The notes under the pieces are model-generated. The model was given only the letters and a program-made list of their open reading frames with translations, made no database searches and was not told the origin of the DNA. From Planctomycetota bacterium (GTDB lineage: Bacteria; Planctomycetota; UBA1135; UBA2386), in NCBI GenBank assembly GCA_965228735.1, contig OZ245838.1:4800001-4864000 (forward strand): DNA of 64,000 nt, written 5' to 3'. The first letter of the stretch is position 1. Each line of letters starts with the position of its first letter. A program made the position numbers and the translations under genes. Positions 1-13,242 of this stretch are shown here, one piece after another.

Positions 1-1194
1 ATCGACCAGCTCCTCGCCAACTACGAGAAGCCAGAAGACCTGACAGGAAAGGACGGCATCCTCAAGGAGCTGACGGCCCGGCTGCTCGGCCGAGCCCTCG
101 AAGGCGAGATGACCGAGCACCTCGGCTACGAGAAGCACGCACCGCGTGCCGAGGGCACGACCAACGCCCGCAACGGATCGCGCAGCAAGACGATCAAGGT
201 CGAGGACGGCGAGCTCGAGATCGAGGTCCCCCGCGACCGCGACAGCACGTTCGAGCCCGAGATCGTCAAGAAGCGCCAGAGACGCTTCGCGGGCTTCGAC
301 GAGAAGATCCTGGCGCTCTACGCCCGCGGCATGACCGTCCGCGACATCCAGGGCCACCTGGAGGAGCTGTACGGCGTCGAGGTTTCGCCGTCGCTGATCT
401 CGAGCGCCACGTCGGCGGTCCACGAAGACGTCCTGGCCTGGCAGAGCCGACCGCTCGAGCCGGTCTACCCGATCGTCTTCCTCGATGCGCTCGTCGTGAA
501 GGTGCGCGATGAAAGCGTCGTCCGCAACAAGTCGGTCTACCTGGCGATCGGCGTCACGCTCGACGGCCGCCGTGAAGTCCTCGGGATCTGGATCGAGCAG
601 ACGGAGGGCGCCAAGTTCTGGCTGAAGGTCATGAACGAGCTGAAGACGCGGGGCGTCCAGGACATCCTGATTGCGTGCTGCGATGGCCTGAAGGGCTTCC
701 CGGACGCGATCGAGCACGTGTTCCCGCAGGCCACCGTGCAGACCTGCATCGTGCACATGATCCGGAACTCGCTGCGCTTCGTCAGCTACAAGGATCGCAA
801 GGCCGTCGCCAAGGACCTCAAGCCGATCTACACGGCGGCCAACCGTGAAGCCGCCGAGGCAGCGCTGGATGCCTTCGACAAGAAGTGGGGCCGCCGCTAC
901 GAGATGATCACCTCGTCCTGGCGAGCGAACTGGGAGCGTGTCGTGCCGTTCCTCGACTTCCCGCCCGAGGTCCGGCGCGTGATCTATACGACCAACCAGA
1001 TCGAGGCGCTCAACTCGAGCCTGCGCAAGCTGCTGCAGTACCGCGGCCACTTCCCGGACGACAAGTCCGTCACCAAGCTGCTCTACCTCGCGCTGCGTCG
1101 CTTCGAGAAGAAGTGGACGCGTGCGCTCTGGAATTGGAGCGCCGTCCTCGGGCAGCTCGCTATCTTCTTTCAAGGCAGGATACCTGCCCTGTAA
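1..1194 (+). CDS. IS256-family (mutator-type) DDE transposase, 5'-partial
   Basis: Frame +1 is open from position 1 (IDQLLANYEKPEDLTGKDGILKEL...). Motifs RNGSRSK, VPRDRDSTFEP, YPIVFLDAL, DGLKGF, QTCIVH and YTTNQIE are typical of IS256 transposases. Confidence 0.95.
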   Translation: MDQLLANYEKPEDLTGKDGILKELTARLLGRALEGEMTEHLGYEKHAPRAEGTTNARNGSRSKTIKVEDGELEIEVPRDRDSTFEPEIVKKRQRRFAGFDEKILALYARGMTVRDIQGHLEELYGVEVSPSLISSATSAVHEDVLAWQSRPLEPVYPIVFLDALVVKVRDESVVRNKSVYLAIGVTLDGRREVLGIWIEQTEGAKFWLKVMNELKTRGVQDILIACCDGLKGFPDAIEHVFPQATVQTCIVHMIRNSLRFVSYKDRKAVAKDLKPIYTAANREAAEAALDAFDKKWGRRYEMITSSWRANWERVVPFLDFPPEVRRVIYTTNQIEALNSSLRKLLQYRGHFPDDKSVTKLLYLALRRFEKKWTRALWNWSAVLGQLAIFFQGRIPAL

Positions 1195-1221
1195 CCGTGA
1201 CCTCACTCCGCCAGCTGGTCG

Positions 1222-1249
1222 CCGTTTACACCGTTAGCTGCACACTCCC
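1222..1249. repeat. Probable right terminal inverted repeat of the IS256 element
   Basis: ...TTTACACCGTTAGCTGCACACTCCC lies just after the transposase stop and resembles IS256 ends. The left IR is outside the window. Confidence 0.6.
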
Positions 1250-1692
1250 CCGCTTCCCCCGGGTTTCGGCAGCCTTTCGTCACCACTCCCCCGTTCCACG
1301 AGCTTCTCAGATGGCGTGCGCCGGAGACTCGTCTCGCCAGTAATCCTCGATCATCTGTAGTGCGCGAACATCCTGGTTCGTGATGGCTTGCCGCGTCGTC
1401 TCCATGACTTCGCGGACCCCCTGAACCCCCTTTCGGCGTGACCGCCTACGGTGGGCGTCGAGTTGCTCGTTCTGAGCAAGATCGACTGAGCAGTGCTCGT
1501 TCACGTCGCGGCTCAGCGGCGGGTTGGCTTGGAACCGCGGCCACACACGCTGCTCCCCGGTGGTTTTGCTCGTCGCAGCGTAGGGCCCTGCGATGTCGCC
1601 CACGCCGAAACCCCTGCACACCGTAGCCGTTAATCCCGGCACCAAAGTCATCGCTCTCCTCAACCCCGGCAGAGAGCCGGAAAGGCAGACCG

Positions 1693-3162
1693 ATGACCGA
1701 TTCGCAGAGACCAGAAGACAACGCTGACCAGCCGACCATTCCGATCGGGCCCGAGCCGACCTCGCAGTTCCCGCTGACGCCGCAGGCGCCCGGGATCGGC
1801 GGCGGAGAGGAGACGCACGGCGAAGCCGGGCGACTCCTCGGAGCCGGCGATCCCGGGCGGGCGCCAACCCCCTCGACGACAGGCGACCTGCCGCCCGAGC
1901 TCGCAGGCCGTCGTCGCTCGCGCACGCGCCGCCGTGTCGTGCCGCAACCGCGTCAGCATTTCAGCGCCCGCGAGCGCCTGCTGATCCTGGACACCTGGCA
2001 GCGCTCGAAGCTGCCGGCAAAGGACTTCGCTGCGCTCGTCGGAGTGTCGCCGCATTCGCTCTACAAGTGGCGCAGCCGCTTCCAGGAGGAAGGGCCGGCG
2101 GGCCTCGAGGATCGCCCGAAGGGCCCCGGGCCCGGCAGCCGCCTGTCGGACGAGACGAAGCGCGCGATCCTGATGATGAAGCAGGCGCATCCCGAGTGGG
2201 GCCAGGATCGCCTGCACTCGATGCTCATGCGCACGCAGGGCCTCGCTGCGAGCCCAGGTGCGATCGGTCGCTACCTGGAGGAAGAGGGCTACGTCGTCGA
2301 GGACGTGCCGACGAAGCCGCACCCGGACAAGCCACGACGCTTCGAGCGCAGCAAGCCGAACCAGATGTGGCAGACGGACCTGTTCACCTTCGTCTTGAAG
2401 CGTCAGAACCGACGTGTGCACCTGGTCGGCTTTCTCGACGACTACAGCCGCTACCTCGTCGGCTTCGGACTGCACGCGAGCAGCTCCGGTGCGATGGTGC
2501 GCGAGGCGCTGGAGTCGGCGATCGCCAACTACGGTGCGCCCGACGAAGTGCTGACCGACAACGGGACGCAGTACAAGACCTGGCGCGGCAAGAGCGCCTT
2601 CACCAAGTTGCTCGAGCGTCGCGGGATCAAGCAGATCGTCGCCAGCCCGCGGCATCCGCAGACGCTGGGCAAGATCGAGCGCTTCTGGGGGACGCTGTGG
2701 CGCGAGTGCGTGCAGCAGGCAGTGTTTCGCGATCTCGACGACGCGCGTGATCGCATTCGTCAGTTCGTCGATCACTACAACTTCCAGCGCACGCATTCGG
2801 GGATCGACGGCATGGTGCCGGCGGATCGCTACTTCGAATCAGCGCCGCAGGTGCTGGAGACGCTGCGCGAGCAGGTGAAGGCCAACGCCAAAGAACTCGC
2901 GCAGAACGGCGCACCGCGCAAGACCTTCTACCTGACGGGTCGAGTCGGTGACTCCAACATCTCGCTGCATGCCGAGGGCGAGCGGGTCGTGCTGACGAAG
3001 GAGGACGGCAGTCGCGAAGAGGTCGACCTCGGCGCGACCGGCCGGCGGGCCGAAGTCGGGAGCGAATCTGACGTCGAAGGGCCCGGCGAGTCTCCCCTCG
3101 ATGCCGCTCTGCAGGACCTGTCCGACGGTCTCGATTCGGAGACCGGGGAGGACGACTCGTGA
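1693..3162 (+). CDS. IS481-like DDE transposase/integrase (HTH + rve)
   Basis: HTH (FAALVGVSPHSLYKWRSRFQEEGPAGL), HPEWG, RFERSKPNQMWQTD, LDDYSR, LTDNGTQY, GKIERFW, YNFQRTHS. Confidence 0.92.
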   Translation: MTDSQRPEDNADQPTIPIGPEPTSQFPLTPQAPGIGGGEETHGEAGRLLGAGDPGRAPTPSTTGDLPPELAGRRRSRTRRRVVPQPRQHFSARERLLILDTWQRSKLPAKDFAALVGVSPHSLYKWRSRFQEEGPAGLEDRPKGPGPGSRLSDETKRAILMMKQAHPEWGQDRLHSMLMRTQGLAASPGAIGRYLEEEGYVVEDVPTKPHPDKPRRFERSKPNQMWQTDLFTFVLKRQNRRVHLVGFLDDYSRYLVGFGLHASSSGAMVREALESAIANYGAPDEVLTDNGTQYKTWRGKSAFTKLLERRGIKQIVASPRHPQTLGKIERFWGTLWRECVQQAVFRDLDDARDRIRQFVDHYNFQRTHSGIDGMVPADRYFESAPQVLETLREQVKANAKELAQNGAPRKTFYLTGRVGDSNISLHAEGERVVLTKEDGSREEVDLGATGRRAEVGSESDVEGPGESPLDAALQDLSDGLDSETGEDDS

Positions 3163-3689
3163 CGGCGAAGAAGCCACGCCCGAAGCCGGCGGGGCCGAAG
3201 GCCCTGACCGGCAGCGACGAGGCCAAGCGCCGCGCCACGGTCATCCTCGAAGCGATGTGTGGGCTTCGCACCACGCAGTCCGCCAGCGATGAGCTGCGCA
3301 TCGCGCTCGTGCGCTACTACGTGCTCGAGACGCGCATGCTGCAGGCGATGATCGACGCGCTGGAGCCGCGTGCGCGCGGTCGCAAGCGCGACATCGAGGC
3401 GGAACTCAAGCAGGTCCGCGAGGACGCCAAAAAGACGCAGCGCGAGCTGATGCGTCTGCAGGCGTTGCACCGCGTCACGCAGCGCGCTGTGTGCGTCAAA
3501 CCGGACAAGCCCGCCAAGTCGGCCAATTCAAAAGGCGGAGCCCCGGTGAAGAAGCGTCGCACCCGCAAGCAGTCACGCGGTGAGCGCGTGCTCGCGGCGA
3601 TGAAGGCTGCCGAGTCCGACGCTGCACCGGCGTCCTTGCCCGCGCCGAGTGCTATCGTGACGCGACAACCAGACGAGGGAGTGGCGTGA
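3159..3689 (+). CDS. HTH + coiled-coil protein (transposon accessory, OrfA-like)
   Basis: GTGA overlap with the upstream transposase. Sequence pattern is shared with the next ORF. Confidence 0.75.
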   Translation: MTAKKPRPKPAGPKALTGSDEAKRRATVILEAMCGLRTTQSASDELRIALVRYYVLETRMLQAMIDALEPRARGRKRDIEAELKQVREDAKKTQRELMRLQALHRVTQRAVCVKPDKPAKSANSKGGAPVKKRRTRKQSRGERVLAAMKAAESDAAPASLPAPSAIVTRQPDEGVA

Positions 3690-3690
3690 C

Positions 3691-4098
3691 ATGACGATGG
3701 GACGGCCGAACAAAGGACTGGATCACCTCGACAAGTACGACGTCTCCGAGCAGAGCCAGCTGCGCGGTCGCATCGTCATGCAGACCATCACGGGCGAGCT
3801 CTCGGTGGCAGATGCGTGCGAGCAGCTCGGTGTCGATCGCTCGCGCTTCTGGCGTCTGCGTGACCAGGCGCTGCAGTGGTATCTGGAGTCCTTCGAACCT
3901 GGCCGTCCCGGTCGTCCTCGGAAGCGAGACGCGGATGCCGAGACCGAAGAGCAAGCTCTGCGTGATCGTGTCGCGCAGCTCGAGCGTGAGCTCCGTCTCG
4001 CGGAAGCGCGGGCGGATCTCGCCGGTCTCGATCCAAAAAAAGTGACGCCGGAACCACGGCGCATGAGCCGACAGGAGCGGCGACGAAGAAGCCGGTGA
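3691..4098 (+). CDS. HTH + leucine-zipper-like protein (IS3 OrfA-like)
   Basis: GELSVADACEQLGVDRSRFWRLR HTH, PGRPRK, then heptad LRDRVAQLERELRL. RBS-like GAGGGAG upstream. Confidence 0.8.
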   Translation: MTMGRPNKGLDHLDKYDVSEQSQLRGRIVMQTITGELSVADACEQLGVDRSRFWRLRDQALQWYLESFEPGRPGRPRKRDADAETEEQALRDRVAQLERELRLAEARADLAGLDPKKVTPEPRRMSRQERRRRSR

Positions 4099-5171
4099 AC
4101 GCCACTGCGGGCAAGCGCTGGGCTGCGATCGACGTATCGCGTCAGGTGATCGCGAACGTCGTGCGCGACCTCGGCGTGACCTGTCGTCGTGCCGGCGAGT
4201 TACTGCGCTGCTCCGCGTCGACAGTGTCCGCCTGGATGCAGCGCGCGGCGCGCGCTGCCATCGGCACGCCCTATCGCAGGCCAGGTCGTCCGACTCTGGC
4301 CGCCGATCGACTGGCCCGCAACGACGTCTACGCCACGCTGCAGGCGCACGGCGGTCGCATCTCGGATCAGGAGCTCAAGCAGGCATACCCGGACGTCGGT
4401 CGCGCGGAGCTGCGGCGACTCAAGGCGCGATGGCGTCGGCTGTCGGCCCGGCTGCGCCGTCGCCGTCTCGAGCAGTTGACCTGGGAGTGCCCGGGCGCGA
4501 TCTGGGCGATGGACTTCGCCGAGTTACCCGGCGGCATCGAAGACCTCGGCAAGCACCTGCTCGTCGTGCGCGACCTCGCCAGCGGCGCTGTGCTCGAGGC
4601 TGCCGCGTGCCGGGCGCAAGATGCCGCGCACGTCGTCCGTGTGCTCCGCCGACTGTTTGCCGAGCATGGCGCCCCGCTCGTCCTCAAGAGCGACAACGGG
4701 AGCGCCTTCGTCAGCCATGCTGCGCAGGCGCTGCTCGCCGCACACGGCGTGCTGCCGCTCTTTTCGCCCCCCGGGACGCCGGCATACAACGGTGGCTGTG
4801 AGGCCGGCGTCGGCAGCGTGAAGTCGCGCGCTGTGGCCATCGCGAGCATGCGCGGCGTCGACTGTGGTGTCACGCTCGACGACTTGCACGACGCGGTCGC
4901 GCAGAGCAACGCGCAGCCGATCGCGCGGCGCGCCGGCTCGCCGCTGCGCGGGCCAACGTGGCTTGCTCGGGCGCCGCTAACGGCCGCGATGCGAGCTGGC
5001 CTGTGCCGCCGCGTCGAGCGGCATCGCGGGAGCGCCTGCCGTGCTCGGGGGATTGCCTGGGGCGCCGACCTCCCGCATCATCTACGGGCTTCGATTGATC
5101 GCTTCGCGATCGGTCGAGCGCTTCGTGAACTCCGTTTCCTATCAACCCGGAGAGCCGACTTTGCTGCCTGA
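4095..5171 (+). CDS. Second DDE integrase/transposase (OrfB-like)
   Basis: WAMDF...VRDLASG...LKSDNGSAF...YNGGCE gives a complete D-D-E set. GTGA overlap with the upstream ORF. Confidence 0.85.
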   Translation: MNATAGKRWAAIDVSRQVIANVVRDLGVTCRRAGELLRCSASTVSAWMQRAARAAIGTPYRRPGRPTLAADRLARNDVYATLQAHGGRISDQELKQAYPDVGRAELRRLKARWRRLSARLRRRRLEQLTWECPGAIWAMDFAELPGGIEDLGKHLLVVRDLASGAVLEAAACRAQDAAHVVRVLRRLFAEHGAPLVLKSDNGSAFVSHAAQALLAAHGVLPLFSPPGTPAYNGGCEAGVGSVKSRAVAIASMRGVDCGVTLDDLHDAVAQSNAQPIARRAGSPLRGPTWLARAPLTAAMRAGLCRRVERHRGSACRARGIAWGADLPHHLRASIDRFAIGRALRELRFLSTRRADFAA

Positions 5172-5211
5172 TTGCTCAGCCAGGGTGTGCAGTGTTTGGC
5201 GGGGGCGTACA

Positions 5212-5321
5212 AGTTCGCCGTCGTAGCCACCTCGGGGACGAGGGGCGACCTGAACGTTCTTGCGAACGAAGTAGCCGGAAAGTTCCAGGAACTCGGCGGT
5301 GAGGGCTTCGAGATGGTTCAT
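5212..5321 (-). pseudogene. 5' fragment of a putative PD-(D/E)XK nuclease-like gene truncated by the transposon
   Basis: ATG overlaps the rep stop (TGATG). Reads MNHLEALTAEFLELSGYFVRKNVQVAPRPRGGYDGEL and is cut exactly at the ACA element end. Confidence 0.6.
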
Positions 5322-6604
5322 CAGAGAGCTGACACAGTGTCAATATCTGGGCGGGCATCCTTGGGCTTCGGGCATCCGTAGCATGCGCTCAGTAGGTCGA
5401 GTTCTGCTCCTCCACTCTGAAGCTGGGCGGCGATCCTTCTGATCTTCTTGATGGACGTCCTGCCCCAGTGGGCCTCGAAGCTGCTCCTGAAGACTGGGTC
5501 GCGGATGTAGGCCCCAGCGAGTGCCTCGTTCTTGCTTGAGGCTTTCACTTCTCGGTGACGGAGCAAGTCGATTTCCCAAGCTAGCGCGGCGTGAAGCGCC
5601 TGAAGGTTCAGCTCGATCGCCACGGTCTTTCCTGGGATCTCTCGGTCGAGGATCTGCAGAAGCCTGCCGTGAACCCTGATCCCCGAGCCTGCGCCTTCGA
5701 GCGCCTTCCGAAGCGCCGGCAGGCCCGCCTTGCCCGTCCACTGCCTCTCAACTCGAACGACTTCGCCCGGAGCCGGCGCATCGACGAGAGCGTCGAAGTC
5801 CTCGACCGACTTGCCGGCCTCCGCCATCTGCCTGCCCTTGTCGTAGACGCGGAGCTGGTGTGGTCTCTGGCTCTTGCTGGCTGGGGCCCACCAGAGTCCG
5901 TTCTTCATTCGCTGGGGGAATGGTGGCTTGTTCACGCGAGGCCAGCGCGTGAACGCGTGAGCGTCTGCGTAGTCTGCGGCGTTTCCTGCGAAGTCGCGAG
6001 CCGCGTCGAGTCGGATGATCGCCCATCGCTTGTCGTGAATGTCTGCCATCGCCGTTGTCCACGGGAGCAGGGCCTGGGTCAGGGTCTCGAAGACGTGCTG
6101 CACGTCGGACTGCGTGAGTTCGTGCAGTCGGTAGTTGGGAACACCAAGAACGCGAGAGACCGAAACCTCGATCGCGCACTTGCCACCTCCGTCAGGCGTA
6201 GACGACCAGAGCTGCACGCGGCAGTCGTCCGAGGGTCGCTGCCAAAGCTCGCTGCCGTGATCCGGCTCTACCAAGGACCCGTCAGGGAGCTTCTTCGCGA
6301 AGTGCCTGTTCTTGACGAGCGCGAACCCGAGCTTCTGCAGGATAGCCCGATCTTTCGCGACAGGTGTCTGCAACAGCGAGAGGCGCACCGTGTCGATGCA
6401 GTTCTCATTCGCGGGAAGCGCGAGGTTGCGAGTGTCGGCAAGGGCCGTCAGCTCTCTTTGATTCGCGATGCCTGTTTGCCGCAGTTGGGCGATGGCCTTC
6501 CAGAGCTTCGCGTTCTTGTGCTTAAGGGCGTGCTTCCCAGATGCGGGCACATGTGGGTTCGCGACCGGGATAGGGGTGCCACTACGGACTGAGTGATGCA
6601 CCAT
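5321..6604 (-). CDS. Putative rolling-circle replication initiator (Rep_trans / phage gene II-like)
   Basis: Motifs IIRLDAARDF, LRVYDKG and VRVERQ match the RxD...YDK...RxE pattern of Rep_trans-type initiators. Confidence 0.6.
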   Translation of the reverse strand: MVHHSVRSGTPIPVANPHVPASGKHALKHKNAKLWKAIAQLRQTGIANQRELTALADTRNLALPANENCIDTVRLSLLQTPVAKDRAILQKLGFALVKNRHFAKKLPDGSLVEPDHGSELWQRPSDDCRVQLWSSTPDGGGKCAIEVSVSRVLGVPNYRLHELTQSDVQHVFETLTQALLPWTTAMADIHDKRWAIIRLDAARDFAGNAADYADAHAFTRWPRVNKPPFPQRMKNGLWWAPASKSQRPHQLRVYDKGRQMAEAGKSVEDFDALVDAPAPGEVVRVERQWTGKAGLPALRKALEGAGSGIRVHGRLLQILDREIPGKTVAIELNLQALHAALAWEIDLLRHREVKASSKNEALAGAYIRDPVFRSSFEAHWGRTSIKKIRRIAAQLQSGGAELDLLSACYGCPKPKDARPDIDTVSAL

Positions 6605-7014
6605 GGCTGCTCTGCTTCTGGTTGTGAATGGGGTCTCCGCTGGACGTTGACCCTACCTGGAGCGCTCGGCTCCGAGTCGGCTTGCCCTGCTAGGGCCTGA
6701 GCGTTGCTCTCCCTGCTGCCCGTTCGCGGTGCGAAGGGTGCGTCCGGTCCGTGTGTCGAGCTGGTTTGTGCCCGGAGTCCGGCTTCGTTTTGGCAGAACT
6801 TCGGCGCGAGGTTCTTTGCGAACTGCGCGTCGCGGCGGCGCGAACTCGTCGCTAGAGCATCGGCGGATTACGAATCGACGGTTCGGACAATGGGTCGACG
6901 CCGAAGGGGTGGCGGCGTAGCTCGGCGTCAAGCTGTCGTTTGGGCTGTCGAGCTTCTTCTGTCGGAGGTCTAGGTCACGACGGCCGGCAGACTTAGGCGC
7001 TAAGCCAGTCCGGG

Positions 7015-7034
7015 TTCGAGTCCTGCAGGGCCTA
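7015..7034 (+). repeat. att-like core, tRNA 3'-end fragment (copy 1)
   Basis: TTCGAGTCCTGCAGGGCCTA = T-loop + 3' T-stem + 3' acceptor strand. Identical copy at 9828-9847. Confidence 0.85.
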
Positions 7035-7042
7035 TCACCCAC

Positions 7043-7082
7043 ACCCCTCGAATGTGGCCGTTAACGGCCGATTCGCGGGGGT
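7043..7082 (+). terminator. Terminator-like hairpin immediately after the att core
   Basis: ACCCCTCGAAT-GT-GGCCG TTAA CGGCC-G-ATTCGCGGGGGT inverted repeat. Confidence 0.45.
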
Positions 7083-7102
7083 TCGGGGTCTGGGCGAGGG
7101 GC

Positions 7103-7170
7103 AGTGTGCAACAGAGTGTGCAACGGTCTTGTTCACACCCTGGCACGTTGTGGCACGATCTGGCACGGGG
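7103..7170 (+). repeat. Putative recombinase arm/accessory-factor binding repeats (left end of cassette)
   Basis: AGTGTGCAAC x2 (7103, 7115), then TGGCACG at 7141, 7151, 7161 (10-bp period). Confidence 0.65.
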
Positions 7171-7361
7171 TGGCGTTGGCGCTGCAGGGTGTGTCCTGCA
7201 GCGGGATGCGTTCCGGCGGGTGTGGCTGCTCGCGGGCGTGGGCCCGACGTTGGCCCGTGTCGGCACCTTCGGCGGCAGGGGCCCCCGGGTGAGGGGCGCG
7301 TCGCAGTGTGGGGCACTGAGCGGCCTACTTGGCCGCGCTTGAGTTCGCCGGTCGGTATTGC

Positions 7362-8093
7362 CTATTTCTCGGGGCTCGACTCAGCGGCCTGGGCCTTCTT
7401 TTTTTTCGCCTCAGCTTCACGCGCTCTGCGCGCTCGATCCAGGTGACGCTTCTTCTCCGCATCGAACCGGGGACTATACGGGCCGGCCGGGAGTGTAGCG
7501 CAGGCGTTGAGGTTGGCTTGCATGGCCATTGGCACATAGTCCGTGGCGGCTGCGGTCACAGCCGCATTGATCGCGGCAGCGATCAGGCCGCCCAGTCCGC
7601 CACCGCCGCCGCCTGAGTTGGACTGGAGCACTTCTTGGTGGCTGGTTTCCCAGAGCACTGCGCCAGTGCGCGTGGAGACAAGTTTGTAGTGCATCGACAC
7701 GGTGACTTGCGAGACGAGCACCGCGTAGGTTGTGTCCCAGGAGAGCAGTGTGATGAAGAGCACTGCGTCTGCGCCCAAATACTCTTCGAAGCGAGCGGGA
7801 GATACGCCGTCGAGGGCCCCGCCATCGGCAAGTCCCTCGGCAGCAAGGATGTCCGCAGTCGCCTCGACCGGGAGCACGTAGTAGCCCCGGTCCACCAACG
7901 GCTTGGTGATTGTCGACAAGAAGAAGCGCGGCGCCTCTGCATCGGCGGTTTGGTTGCGGACTGGTGGAACGACGACCGTGAAGGGCCGCTCGGCGTAGAA
8001 CTTCTCGTAGTCGGGGACCGGAGGCGCGCTTTGGCAGGCTATGGGCAAGACGCACGCGAGGAGGAGTCCGTAGCGAATGAACTCCCGCATCAC
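7362..8093 (-). CDS. DUF799/GNA1162-family lipoprotein
   Basis: Lipobox LPIAC; VVPPVRNQT, PLVDRGYYVLPV, LGADAVLFITL, LPAGPYSP. Confidence 0.85.
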   Translation of the reverse strand: MMREFIRYGLLLACVLPIACQSAPPVPDYEKFYAERPFTVVVPPVRNQTADAEAPRFFLSTITKPLVDRGYYVLPVEATADILAAEGLADGGALDGVSPARFEEYLGADAVLFITLLSWDTTYAVLVSQVTVSMHYKLVSTRTGAVLWETSHQEVLQSNSGGGGGGLGGLIAAAINAAVTAAATDYVPMAMQANLNACATLPAGPYSPRFDAEKKRHLDRARRAREAEAKKKKAQAAESSPEK

Positions 8094-8375
8094 TGCCCTC
8101 CCGGTTCGTCCATGGACTCAACAGTGGCGACCTGTGGGAGAAAGCGTTCCAGGAGCGCTACGAACTTCGCGGATTCTGGGTAGTCGGTTCGCTCTTTCTC
8201 GAGGGCGGCCTGCGCAATGTCCGGCTTCCCGACCTTGTAAGAGTAGTATGCATATTCCGCGGAGATTCCGGCAGGCGGCTTCTTCCCTGACTGCTCCGCC
8301 TTGAGGCACAGGTCTTCGAGCAGCTTGTGATGCGCCTTGATGGCTTGTGGCGACTCGGATCGCAGTGCTGAATAG
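8090..8375 (-). pseudogene. DUF4810-family lipoprotein, 5'-truncated by IS3
   Basis: KPPAGISAEYAYY...LEKERTDYPES resembles DUF4810. The N-terminus/lipobox is missing and the frame runs into the IS3 IR. Confidence 0.7.
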
Positions 8376-8425
8376 TGAACCGCCCCGGGTTTCTCGGAGG
8401 CTCCCAGACGTGAGAGGATGTAGCG

Positions 8426-9651
<1,226 letters not shown>

Positions 9652-9691
9652 CCGAGCCTCCGGAGAACCCGGGGCGGTTCACAATGCACTC

Positions 9692-9812
9692 GTTCACACC
9701 GCGACACAATCTGACACACCGTGGCACGGCCGCACCCCGGCGCGATCGCCGCATCGCCCGTCACGTGGCGCAGATAGGCGCAACCTGGCACTGTCTGTCA
9801 CAACCTGGCACG
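9692..9812 (+). repeat. 10-bp-periodic (T/C)G(G/A)CAC repeats (right end of cassette)
   Basis: GTTCACACCG CGACACAATC TGACACACCG TGGCACGG, and CAACCTGGCAC at 9781 and 9801. Confidence 0.6.
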
Positions 9813-9827
9813 ACCCCGCGCTCCGTC

Positions 9828-9847
9828 TTCGAGTCCTGCAGGGCCTA
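9828..9847 (+). repeat. att-like core, tRNA 3'-end fragment (copy 2, right island boundary)
   Basis: Exact 20-bp direct repeat of 7015-7034. Confidence 0.85.
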
Positions 9848-9968
9848 CTCACTCAAACCCGTCGACGAACGGTTTCGGAGAGTCCGAGCGGACCCCCGAG
9901 TGTGCGAGGCGCGCGGTTTCGCGGTTTGTCGGTCAGGTCCCCTGCCGCCGGGACACCGTCACCATGCC

Positions 9969-11729
9969 ATGACCAAGCCCTCCCGTCGGTTTGCGCTGTC
10001 CCTCCTGACCGTTGGCCTCAGTGCCGCCGCCGCGTCCGCGCAGTGCGGCATCGTTGCCGACCTCACCCCCGGCAACGCCAACAACAACAACATCGGCTCG
10101 ATCGTCGCCGCGTTCGACGAGCAGATCTACTTCTCGTACTACCATGCCACTTACGGAAGTGAGCTGTGGCGCTGGGATCACGTCAACGGGGCGCAGATGG
10201 TCGTCGACTACGCGCCGGGGACGTACAACCACTCTCCTGAGCAGATCACGCCCTGCTGCACGGCGGCCGGGCCGAGGGTGTTCTACAGCGGATTCGAGAT
10301 CGGTCACGGTCACGAACTGTTCGTGACCGACGGAACGGCCGCCGGCACGGCGCGCGTGAAGGAGATCCGCTCGGGTTCGTCGAGCGCGCTTCCGAGCAAC
10401 ATGATCGCGGTCGGGCAGCGCTTGTTCTTCAGCGCCAGCGATGGAGTTCATGGTCGGGAGCCGTGGATCTCGGACGGCACTGCGGCCGGCACGATGTTGC
10501 TGGCCAACATCAGGACCGGGGGAAGCAGCAATCCGCAATACCCGTTCATCTTCGGCGACAAGGTGTTGTTCGTGGCTCAGGCGACCACCACCGGCCGCGA
10601 GCTCTACATCACCGACGGCACGCCGGCCGGCACGCAGTTGCTGAAAGACATCAACCCCGGGGCCGGGAGCTCGAGTCCGGTGCAGTTCACCCGGATGGGC
10701 AACCACGTCTACTTCGTCGCGGACGACGGCTCGATCGGCTCGGAGATCTGGAAGACGGATGGCACCCCGGCCGGAACCGTGCCGATGGGCGACCTGTTCC
10801 CGGGGAGCTCGCACGGTCCGTATGGCCTCTGTGCCTGCGACGACAAGCTGTTCTTCTTCGAGTGGCACGGTTCCAACTCCGGCCCGGTCTTCGTCAGCGA
10901 CGGCACGTTGGCTGGCACCGTCGACCTCAGTGCGGCCACCGGCGTGTTCGGCCGGAGTCTCACGCCCGCGAACGGGCGCGTGTTCTTCGCCGGCGATGAT
11001 CTGATCCATGGTCAGGAGCCGTGGGTCACCGATGGCACAGTTGCGGGCACGCAGCTCATCGCCGACCTGCGGGCCGGTTCTTCCAACCCATCGCAGTTGG
11101 TGCCCACGGGCAACGGCATCTGCTTCGTCGCGCGGACGACCTTGTCGGGTGAGATCTGGCACAGCGACGGCACCCTGGCGGGGACCAACCTGCTCTGCAA
11201 CCTGGATCCGTCGGGCAACGCCAACCCCATGTTCTTGACGATGTGCCGCGGGCAGGTGTTCATGAACGCGTACAGCACCGGCTACGGCCGCGAACTGCAC
11301 GCCATCACGACCCCGGGCGCCACGGTCGTCGAGTTGCCCGGCGCGTCGGGCCCGGGTCAGCCGAGATTGCGGACCCGCAACTGCGGTGCGCCCGTTCTCG
11401 GCTCCACGGTCGACCTCGAAGCCATCGGGCCGGCGGGCAGCCTGACGTTCTTGCTTGCCGACATCGCCGGTCTGCCGGCGCCGATCGCGCCGATCCCCGG
11501 GGTCGTCGAGGGCGGTTACGACTACGTCGGCCTGCAGGCCGGGACGGCGATTCCGATCTCGTCGGCGCTCGGCGCGACGCTGACATTGCCGTTCGCGCTG
11601 CCGAGTTCGACGACGTTCGAGGGCGTGATCTTCGACTTCCAGGCGATCTGGTTCGACCCGGCGGCAACCCCGGCGCTGCAGGCGTCCAACGGTCTGCGGC
11701 TCGTCCTCGGGCCGGCGTCGGCGCACTGA
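9969..11729 (+). CDS. Secreted ELWxxDGT-repeat beta-propeller protein
   Basis: Signal peptide ending ASAQ; repeated ELFVTDGT/EPWISDGT/EIWKTDGT; shared C-terminal domain. Confidence 0.9.
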   Translation: MTKPSRRFALSLLTVGLSAAAASAQCGIVADLTPGNANNNNIGSIVAAFDEQIYFSYYHATYGSELWRWDHVNGAQMVVDYAPGTYNHSPEQITPCCTAAGPRVFYSGFEIGHGHELFVTDGTAAGTARVKEIRSGSSSALPSNMIAVGQRLFFSASDGVHGREPWISDGTAAGTMLLANIRTGGSSNPQYPFIFGDKVLFVAQATTTGRELYITDGTPAGTQLLKDINPGAGSSSPVQFTRMGNHVYFVADDGSIGSEIWKTDGTPAGTVPMGDLFPGSSHGPYGLCACDDKLFFFEWHGSNSGPVFVSDGTLAGTVDLSAATGVFGRSLTPANGRVFFAGDDLIHGQEPWVTDGTVAGTQLIADLRAGSSNPSQLVPTGNGICFVARTTLSGEIWHSDGTLAGTNLLCNLDPSGNANPMFLTMCRGQVFMNAYSTGYGRELHAITTPGATVVELPGASGPGQPRLRTRNCGAPVLGSTVDLEAIGPAGSLTFLLADIAGLPAPIAPIPGVVEGGYDYVGLQAGTAIPISSALGATLTLPFALPSSTTFEGVIFDFQAIWFDPAATPALQASNGLRLVLGPASAH

Positions 11730-11829
11730 GTTCGGCTTTCGATCTCGGCACCGAACTCCCCGCTTCCCTCAACTGGGCGACGATCGGAGAGGCAGACCCA
11801 GGACGAGTTCGCAGAGAGCCGTGAACTCG

Positions 11830-13242
11830 TTACTTCTGCGTCTCGAAGGACCACTCGAGCCGAATGCGGTTCGTCTCACCTTCGGCTTTGCACTCGAACA
11901 CAGCCGTGAACCAGGTCGAGGTCGCGAGCATCTTGTCGGCGACGAAGAAGGCGCTGCGACCGTTGCTGGGCGCGAGCGTGCTGTGGATGGGTTTCTCGTG
12001 CGTGAACAATCGTCCAGCCACGGGCTCTCGGCCTCGCCGCTCCTCTTCGAACAACTGCATCGTGATGTCCGACAGCTTCAGGTCGCCGTAGTGAACCGAG
12101 ACGGCCAGCCCACGTTGGGTGTCGTAGAAGGTGGGGTCATCTTCGACTTCGGGCGCCTCGCGGCCGGTGAATGTCGCGGTGCCGCGAGACCCCGGCGCGG
12201 GAAAGACCACCGGATGCCCGTCGGCGGGAACGGTGAGGGGCTGACTCCAGATCACGGTGTAGCCCGGTGTCCCACCGGCTCCAGGGCGGGAGCCTGGCTT
12301 GATCCCGATACCGAACGGCCCGGATGGCCCGAGGTGCCCGTCTCGGTGCAGCATCGTGAACAGGAGCGACGTGACTGCACCGGTTGGATCGGCCGCGAAG
12401 TAGATCCCGCCGTTCCGCCCGGCCTCGGCCCCCTCCTGCGAGTAGGCCGCGAGTCCGGGGTCCTGGTTGTGCGTCTTCTTGACCGACGTGCGATACGAGT
12501 ACTCGTTCGCGAACAGATACTCAGCGTGCAGCTCGCACGCCCGGCATCTCGCTTCGTCGAGGACGAGAGGCGGCAGGGCGCCGAGTTGACGGCTGTAGGC
12601 GAGGAGGATCGCGGCTTTGCGCTGCTGGTCCGTGCTCCACTCCGGCCAGGGTTGCTCCTCGACCGTGAGCTTGGGTGTGCGGCCCGTGACGTCGACGTCG
12701 TACGCGCCGAAACCGTCCTCGAGGAGCAGGCGGCGGTCGTCGTCGACAGCTCGAAACGCGGAAGCGTGATGGCTCATGTAGTCGTTGGCGCCGAGAAAAC
12801 TGCCATCGAGGTCGGCATCGAAGAACTCGAACACCGTGCCCTTGATCTTGCCGCGCAGCAGCGCGGCCGAGCTGGCGTGCCACACATCGGACTTCGTGTA
12901 GAACAAGATCGGGAGCTGCTGGTCTGCGATCGTCAGTTCGAGAACCTTGGACTTGTTCGGCGACAGTCTCGTCGGCCCTCGCCGGTCGGCGACCTTGACG
13001 CTCAGCCGGCCGCGGTCATCGACTGTGCAGCGATCGGCGAGCAGCTCATGCAGCCGCGTGCTTGCTGCCGTCGCGCGGAACCCGATCGGAGGGGGCAACA
13101 CGGTCGTCTCGGCCGCAAGTGGAACGAGCTGCGGGTCCTCGAGCTCGGCGGGGCGCAGATTGCTCCGAGCCTGGGCAGTCGCCATAGCGGCAAGTAGGGG
13201 TAGCGCGACCAGTTCGACGAGAGCGTGCTGGGGTTTGAGCAT
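11830..13242 (-). CDS. Secreted protein with CAP/SCP-like domain
   Basis: Signal peptide; RQLGALPPLVLDE..ACELHAEYL...HNQDP...TMLHR pattern of CAP domains. Confidence 0.6.
   Translation of the reverse strand: MLKPQHALVELVALPLLAAMATAQARSNLRPAELEDPQLVPLAAETTVLPPPIGFRATAASTRLHELLADRCTVDDRGRLSVKVADRRGPTRLSPNKSKVLELTIADQQLPILFYTKSDVWHASSAALLRGKIKGTVFEFFDADLDGSFLGANDYMSHHASAFRAVDDDRRLLLEDGFGAYDVDVTGRTPKLTVEEQPWPEWSTDQQRKAAILLAYSRQLGALPPLVLDEARCRACELHAEYLFANEYSYRTSVKKTHNQDPGLAAYSQEGAEAGRNGGIYFAADPTGAVTSLLFTMLHRDGHLGPSGPFGIGIKPGSRPGAGGTPGYTVIWSQPLTVPADGHPVVFPAPGSRGTATFTGREAPEVEDDPTFYDTQRGLAVSVHYGDLKLSDITMQLFEEERRGREPVAGRLFTHEKPIHSTLAPSNGRSAFFVADKMLATSTWFTAVFECKAEGETNRIRLEWSFETQK

Follow-up and report, generated by a model that had tools for sequence, protein, structure and literature searches.

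The window considered here, a stretch of 64,000 nucleotides from a Planctomycetota bacterium (GenBank assembly GCA_965228735.1, contig OZ245838.1, positions 4,800,001 to 4,864,000 of the forward strand), contains near its start a mobile element that carries two different DDE (Asp-Asp-Glu) transposases within a single pair of terminal inverted repeats. Four open reading frames (ORFs), A to D, lie on the same strand between its ends; A/B and C/D overlap as GTGA and B and C stand 1 nt apart, an arrangement already read as translational coupling in the preliminary description of this DNA. In window coordinates, the features of the element are:

1594..5211, forward strand: the whole element, 3618 bp, which in the genome (G000) is C1:4801594-4805211
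1589..1593, no strand: left flank, without a counterpart on the other side of the element (no target duplication)
1594..1635, forward strand: left inverted repeat, beginning TGT, its subterminal motif set 1 bp deeper than that of the right repeat
1693..3162, forward strand: ORF A, 489 aa, an IS481-like DDE transposase with an N-terminal helix-turn-helix (HTH) region and an rve core (D229/D289/E329)
3159..3689, forward strand: ORF B, 176 aa, predicted HTH and coiled coil, OrfA-like, a paralogue of C and the marker of the family
3691..4098, forward strand: ORF C, 135 aa, HTH and coiled coil, resembling IS3 OrfA
4035..4042, forward strand: A7G run in C, from which the D frame (-1) is open, likely a programmed frameshift giving a C-D fusion
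4095..5171, forward strand: ORF D, 358 aa, a second DDE transposase with its own N-terminal HTH and an rve core (D140/D200/E236)
5171..5211, reverse strand: right inverted repeat, finishing ACA
5212..5216, no strand: right flank, no repeat of the left flank

The window element is a real and recently mobile unit, given that G000 holds three identical 3618-bp copies (C1:4801594-4805211, 7175002-7178619 and 7181633-7185250), that identity among them ends exactly at TGT...ACA, and that a Logan unitig of exactly 3618 bp occurs in runs X5, X6 and X8 (three of the four runs in that search). The tips are thus set independently of the inverted repeats, as the preliminary description had hoped other copies would allow. 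Identical copies with exact ends are also present in the genomes G344 (five), G327 (two) and G220 (two), and run X13 contains a variant, about 98% identical, with different left flanks. Junctions in Logan contigs agree with the flanks of the assembly; IS3 elements pass through figure-eight and circle intermediates, and here no end-to-end circle junction or empty-site joint appeared in eight runs, all of them available as contigs, which drop rare forms. The imperfect pair of repeats of about 42 bp that had been described around the four genes is likewise borne out: the ends measure 42 and 41 bp, and the left repeat aligns with the reverse complement of the right at 32 identities in 39 aligned columns (5 gap columns), a score reached by 0 of 20,000 random TGT-anchored pairs from the element interior. 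No internal copy of the repeat rises above the shuffled background (best local score 27.5, shuffled mean 28.7), again as first described. A search of G000 with end profiles returned only the three left ends and, for the right-end profile, zero matches, and is too weak to exclude solo ends. Two relics of a related element, both lacking tips, were noticed in G000, one of 84 bp at C1:4784539-4784622 (89% identity) and one of 93 bp at C1:7171366-7171458 (85% identity); one retains left subterminal sequence running into the beginning of A, the other an inner piece of A.

The two transposases are clearly distinct. ORF A passes the NCBIfam IS481 model NF033577 (233.2 bits, cutoff 224), falls below the cutoff of the IS3 model NF033516 (150 bits, cutoff 160) and matches Pfam rve, HTH_32 and HTH_28. 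Tryptophan replaces lysine seven residues after its catalytic glutamate (E+7), and the protein has a conserved C-terminal beta domain; in its predicted structure (predicted local distance difference test, pLDDT, 76; predicted template modelling score, pTM, 0.50) this domain is small, and the best Foldseek matches are IstA and TnsB. ORF D matches Pfam rve (59.6 bits, cutoff 32.6), stays under both NCBIfam cutoffs (NF033577, 70.2 bits against 224; NF033516, 80.5 bits against 160, this model having been scored on A and D singly), and has asparagine at E-4 and lysine at E+7. B and C are paralogous (27% identity over 83 aa, E 2e-8). Neither reaches the cutoff of any Pfam or NCBIfam family: the model of B is predicted to form an HTH and a coiled coil (pLDDT 78, pTM 0.40) and yields nothing in Foldseek at E<=0.001, just weak HTH matches, and C gives weak matches below cutoff to Pfam HTH_28, HTH_29 and HTH_Tnp_1 and covers positions 5-85 of NF033516. 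No ATPase family was detected on any of the four ORFs (Pfam, NCBIfam, E 0.1), in keeping with the lack of a visible Walker motif noted in the preliminary description.

Judging from the arrangement of C and D, the element likely makes D as a separate protein and also as a C-D fusion, as in IS3. In 39 four-gene elements the frame of D relative to C is -1 in 31, +1 in seven and 0 in one; a run of at least six A falls within the last 110 nt of C in 21/39, and a start codon is also present at the C stop in 24/39. According to the available part of one study, the slip site of IS2 is A6G (PMC3219604). A hairpin 3' of the slip site in the window (-20.3 kcal/mol) was also considered; lacking a shuffle control, it is not put forward as a feature.

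All four genes travel and evolve together, a conservation of gene order that the preliminary description had put forward for checking. An alignment search with B found 93 metagenome loci, 80 of which were examined; wherever the contig had room, A lay upstream in 48/50 (L041 and L060 lacking it despite room), C downstream in 47/47 and D in 33/33. Reverse searches across 401 genomes of the phylum found D in 21 and A in 34. The 28 D loci comprise 19 with A-B-C-D (one with an interrupted B), one B-C-D at a contig edge, one decayed remnant and seven with a 5'-truncated D and a right end only, for which no matching left end lies within 2.5 kb; an intact D without partners is found at none of them. 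The A profile exceeds 460 bits in 32/401 genomes (about 8%), and in the 31 other than G000 D follows downstream in all 25 with room, three end at a contig edge after B, and the remaining three, at contig edges, were left out. The question of whether the two transposases usually occur separately can thus be answered in the negative for close homologues; certain more distant A-like enzymes do occur without B, C or D and are taken up below. The A search also revealed a sister clade with three genes (A-X-D), a single HTH gene in the middle and an A about 40% identical. At E<=1e-10 the B family comprises 738 clusters (50% identity), and the nearest Atlas clusters are mostly Planctomycetota; the viral contigs searched contained no relative of B, and PLSDB plasmids only distant single-enzyme IS3/IS481 relatives.

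Several altered forms were encountered in passing. L260 (G407:C12:118503-119321) is an 819-bp internally deleted derivative of a three-gene element, with the start of A fused to the end of D and both tips damaged, and in L121 (G035:C10:2132300-2133440) an insertion of about 1.1 kb, weakly resembling the HTH region of A, splits the B gene of an otherwise complete four-gene element. In the three-gene clade (e.g. L184, L185 and L190) the frame of A continues for 150-250 low-complexity codons over the middle gene, to give 600-720 aa, for which a real overlap and GC-rich chance are both conceivable. At L028/L026 (Ga0316209_1005203), A-B-C-D is followed about 4.3 kb later by A-B-C at 97% identity, either a tandem copy or a circular assembly.

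Both catalytic triads, which the preliminary description had considered complete, are near-invariant in relatives, the D/D/E of A being conserved in 48/48, 51/51 and 55/55 covered sequences and that of D in 55/56 (one N), 56/56 and 56/56. The ratio of nonsynonymous to synonymous substitution rates (dN/dS), calculated on stop-to-stop frames, stays under 1 for all genes in each of the 12 pairs compared, with values of 0.15-0.54 for the window against L002, L013 and L015, up to 0.85 in diverged pairs, and 0.15-0.22 for D among the G344 variants; by this measure all four genes are under purifying selection. Trees of A and D from 48 elements have 22 of 45 splits in common, strong splits recur (14/15 of those of D in the A tree, 15/21 of those of A in the D tree), and A-D patristic distances correlate with a rho of 0.84. 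Since kin share a history, this agreement speaks for joint inheritance and is not evidence of physical contact; a predicted complex of A (residues 87-456) with D, from 37-row alignments, scored 0.00, which argues neither for nor against binding. A FastTree of the catalytic core, unrooted (midpoint) and without a monophyly test, places A of both clades with four IS481-type controls, including ISEc19 (support 0.99), and D of both clades in a group of its own. It is almost certain that the element is a genuine unit with two DDE enzymes on which selection acts.

The ends and flanks of the unit bear on how it moves. The subterminal motif is shifted by +1 on the left relative to the right in 29 of 34 distinct elements; the register is 0 in four (one of them a tie) and -1 in one, probably a misplaced end. 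Target sites were compared at 34 insertions (26 distinct elements) with both flanks, after exclusion of nine at contig edges, four with doubtful ends and seven without a candidate end; the end of L137 was taken from the alignment of copies. Not one of the 34 has an exact target duplication of 4-12 bp, and no near match of 13-600 bp was found. Short flank matches occur about as often as expected by chance (3 bp once, 0.36 expected; 2 bp three times, 2.5 expected), so that matches of 1-3 bp are near chance; the flanks of L031 match at 5/6. In the same G000 assembly, an IS256-family insertion sequence (IS) shows a duplication of 7-8 bp, mostly 8 bp, in 8/10 full copies, a second IS one of 6-7 bp in the 6/6 copies listed, and an IS3 one of 3-4 bp in 3/4 copies. 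Nor do flanks pair across copies: the 47 left-right combinations in the four multi-copy genomes (G000, G327, G220 and G344) contain one 4-bp and one 3-bp match, pairings of at least 3 bp being absent from G000, G327 and G220 and accounting for two of 25 in G344.

Pfam searches of 147 junction frames from the 34 insertions found a family in a junction frame at 17 insertions, and the same family on both sides of the element at 0/34. Clear cuts affect GH77 (L136), Mutator transposases (L139 and G000 copy 3), beta-CASP/RMMBL (L190), IS66 TnpB (L148), rve_3 (L127) and YD-shell (L137), FG-GAP and condensation domains are likewise matched on one side only, and cuts are found at left ends and at right ends. 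The 195 bp absent from the IS256 at G000 copy 3 are not present as a separate piece elsewhere. In the one informative comparison with an empty site, the colinearity of G314 with G251, which holds one full copy, extends over 5.66 kb (88%) and reaches the left end of the element; the next 2.9 kb of that region have no match in G251, and G454 retains 825 bp of them. This comparison shows a deletion. No usable empty-site relative came from G196, G407, G344, G327 or five relatives of G000. The A7G run, the paralogy of B and C, the 1-bp asymmetry of the ends, the lack of a target duplication, the cut genes that are not continued and the deletion at the empty site all go beyond the preliminary description.

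The simplest reading is a replacement model, since it joins two kept enzymes, unequal ends and unrelated flanks. Each end would be handled by its own DDE enzyme (A or D) in a two-enzyme reaction and joined to a separate target site, and the element would take the place of the intervening host DNA, which would disappear. A and D would act in one event, with two strand transfers that are not locked to one staggered cut, and B, C and the C-D fusion (probably arising by -1 frameshift) may attach to the subterminal repeats and, in the manner of IS3 OrfA, build or control the complex. Events of opposite polarity would produce large duplications, possibly lost via recombination. The chance that one enzyme serves each end, that two target sites are used and that host DNA is replaced is close to even, on the low side. 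The idea of one enzyme per asymmetric end, already voiced in the preliminary description, gains indirect support from the conserved 1-bp difference in register. Its wider suggestion of a possibly undescribed class with a heteromeric transposase fares well as to the unit, the conservation of both enzymes and a layout that was not found in the literature searched; the two-enzyme reaction itself we infer. A new transposon class with a naturally heteromeric transpososome, in which a different DDE enzyme serves either end, the ends land at separate sites, replacement of host DNA is the usual outcome and every jump is a deletion without target duplication, is a tentative proposal, appreciably short of an even chance. 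As to its origin, C-D is itself IS3-like, with an orfA/orfB arrangement and a likely -1 frameshift, so the element likely arose long ago when a solo IS481-like element of the A type fused with an IS3-like orfA/orfB module whose inner ends have been lost.

A number of observations weigh against such a replacement. The genomes are snapshots that include no fresh insertion, in which deletion on arrival and deletion soon after are inseparable; there is one true empty site only, its deleted stretch is without set limits and G251 is 91% complete; and large duplications, which opposite-polarity events should leave, were not seen. The one 4-bp match across copies (left flank of L135 with right flank of L139 in G344) belongs to an inverted pair and fits replicative inversion; joining these cross flanks restores no reading frame. 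At a 35th insertion, the third G327 copy, the flanks match imperfectly at 13/17 positions, as well as only 2/1190 mismatched pairs do, which could represent a decayed 17-bp duplication, though the flanks read as different genes. The register comparison has a noisy control, the 14 single-enzyme controls (0 in 10, +1 in three, -1 in one) having ends that were called automatically and several of which are doubtful, and within the four-gene clade the A-D rho is just 0.59, with three strong conflicts. Finally, distant A-like enzymes occur without B, C or D. L198 (G216:C122:1-1460) is a single-gene element with an A-like transposase (35% identity, 343 bits) and similar TGT ends of its own, in a genome (92% complete) with no match to D beyond A itself; around L308 and L309, with roughly 0.7 and 2.1 kb covered downstream, none of B, C and D was seen. 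Because such solo elements exist, an A-type enzyme may serve both ends. L198 is also a candidate for an ancestor-like or a non-autonomous relative.

The main rival to replacement, which we consider rather unlikely, holds that the element inserts normally, with a short duplication or blunt and probably replicatively, and that each enzyme then repeatedly attacks from one end within the same molecule and deletes adjacent DNA, as reported for IS150, IS903 and elements of the IS26 type, so that the lost duplications are later damage, unusually frequent through two enzymes. Adjacent deletion is a known cause of lost duplications: in the accessible part of a study of the long-term evolution experiment, 14/83 IS events were two-step IS150 deletions (PMC11708052). 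The paired copies in G344 and G000, inverted or direct and separated by 3-24 kb, the cross-copy and 13/17 flank matches just described and the common truncated right-end remnants all suit this explanation. It would nevertheless have to strike nearly every copy, since 0/34 retain an exact duplication of at least 4 bp even among 100%-identical young copies, whereas 69/83 events kept theirs in the same portion of that experiment's report (PMC11708052). No recognisable gene is split across both sides in the 34 insertions, and the conserved 1-bp asymmetry of the ends is left unexplained. That missing duplications and mismatched flanks are assembly errors, with contigs joined across collapsed repeats around a real element, is barely credible, even though most loci come from metagenome assemblies or metagenome-assembled genomes: only two of the 47 left-right pairings reach 3 bp, G000 resolves shorter ISs with correct duplications, Logan contig junctions match the assembly flanks, and G251 has just the one full copy.

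The enzymes might instead divide the reaction by step, D (or C-D) cutting and transferring both ends and A cutting the target or second strands, or aiding entry into breaks, loosely as TnsA works beside TnsB. This improbable scheme draws on the finding that 57/57 sequences of D have N at E-4 together with K/R at E+7, while K/R occupies E+7 in 0/56 sequences of A and K does so in 15/15 controls. In HIV integrase, so far as the consulted portions of two papers go, the lysine matching E+7 contacts the terminal A (PMC3185514, PMC3219604), and insertion into existing breaks without duplication is proposed for an IS481 element in the part of PMC11708052 at hand. The loss of this lysine was considered as proof that A needs D and is weakened, given that solo A-like relatives mostly lack it too (E+7 is Y, Q, R, E and A in L198, L308, L309, L310 and L311); the loss would then predate the partnership and need not block end binding, and the difference at E+7 says that the two enzymes differ, not that A depends on D. 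Moreover, K159V only slowed integration, and the N-terminal HTH region of A is complete, as in ordinary IS481 enzymes that bind ends. A frozen composite of two ISs, in which one enzyme does everything and the other module is a linked passenger, is less probable again and would be a distinct surprise. C-D does resemble an IS3 orfA/orfB pair and A a solo IS481-type enzyme, elements with solo A-like enzymes exist, and D evolves about 1.7x faster than A; against this stand the absence of inner ends, triads that are kept across elements with A about 40% and D 18-35% identical, dN/dS below 1 for both A and D, and the lack of an intact solo D among 28 D loci or of any close A with room that is without D.

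Whatever the reaction, the element works like a DDE IS of the IS3/IS481 group and fits neither IS481, IS3 nor IS21/Tn7/Mu. IS481 elements have a single transposase ORF between their repeats. With that family (NF033577; e.g. ISEc19/yagA) the element shares an A that passes the model and groups with IS481 controls, and short imperfect TG(T) terminal repeats; its four ORFs, two with DDE triads and thus three genes beyond A, and its missing duplication place it outside, IS481 duplications being 2-15 bp and mostly 6 bp in the available section of PMC10045372. A also differs in its lack of the E+7 lysine and its extra C-terminal beta domain. IS3 elements (IS2, IS150, IS911) offer parallels in the orfA/orfB-like C-D with -1 overlap and putative A-run slip site, the TG...CA ends and the D(35)E spacing in D. 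The profile score of D (80 bits against 160), the gene set with A and B in addition and the lack of a 3-5 bp duplication exclude this family, D further having its own N-terminal HTH and a separate clade. IS21, Tn7 and Mu resemble the element in having several proteins, and the model fold of A is closest to IstA and TnsB, whereas no AAA+ ATPase is present here, which sets the element apart, and it measures 3.6 kb, without cargo and without duplication. Tn7 uses two different nucleases, of which TnsA is not a DDE enzyme. The ends of IS21, Tn7 and Mu each contain several repeated transposase-binding sites; none were seen among the top families of a general repeat list for the element, no dedicated search having been made. 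IS26 copies often lack duplications and lie next to deletions. Like IS26/IS6, IS150 often leaves copies without duplications that border deletions, as the available text of PMC11708052 has it; both differ in using one enzyme and in fresh insertions that mostly keep the duplication, against 0/34 here. In the part seen of an account of piggyBat, unequal ends are likewise served by an asymmetric complex, but the transposon is eukaryotic with one natural enzyme and an obligate heterodimer made by engineering (10.64898/2026.07.15.738711), where the present element has two natural genes. Composite or nested ISs differ in that no inner inverted repeats surround either module here. No description of a two-DDE layout was found in the literature searched, a search outside which subscription papers, ISfinder and TnCentral lay.

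The surroundings of the window copy are themselves rich in mobile DNA. An IS256-family element (10 full copies plus broken ones in G000) and an IS3-family element (five full copies) flank the region:

1-1250 and about 8375-9680: flanking IS elements

Between them, on the reverse strand at window 5321-6604, a 427-aa ORF without Pfam or NCBIfam family is 66% identical to a G002 protein and adjoins a tRNA-like fragment (window about 6990-7125); ARAGORN reports no tRNA in window 1-12000. Near window 7105 lies a short repeat that is found again about 22 kb further upstream, close to G000 4784640, which suggests that the window copy sits inside an integrated island. Elsewhere, RHS/YD-repeat genes adjoin the right flanks of L137, L190 and L273, and ISs, restriction or abortive-infection genes adjoin the flanks of L126, L146 and L187; the family may prefer or persist in polymorphic-toxin and defence islands.

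No characterised DDE transposon is known to use more than one catalytic DDE protein for its two ends, and a target duplication is left by nearly all of them. With a large natural family that has two DDE enzymes, unequal ends and no duplication, one can test directly why strand transfers are normally coupled and what follows when the coupling is absent; such a family would be categorically new if the two-enzyme replacement reaction holds true. If each end has its own enzyme, the two would constitute an orthogonal pair supplied by nature, of use in genome tools that act directionally or make deletions. More broadly, were this reading true, the family would drive gene loss and the remodelling of islands in environmental bacteria without having been recognised, hidden because annotation labels its two transposase genes as unrelated IS481 and IS3 transposases.

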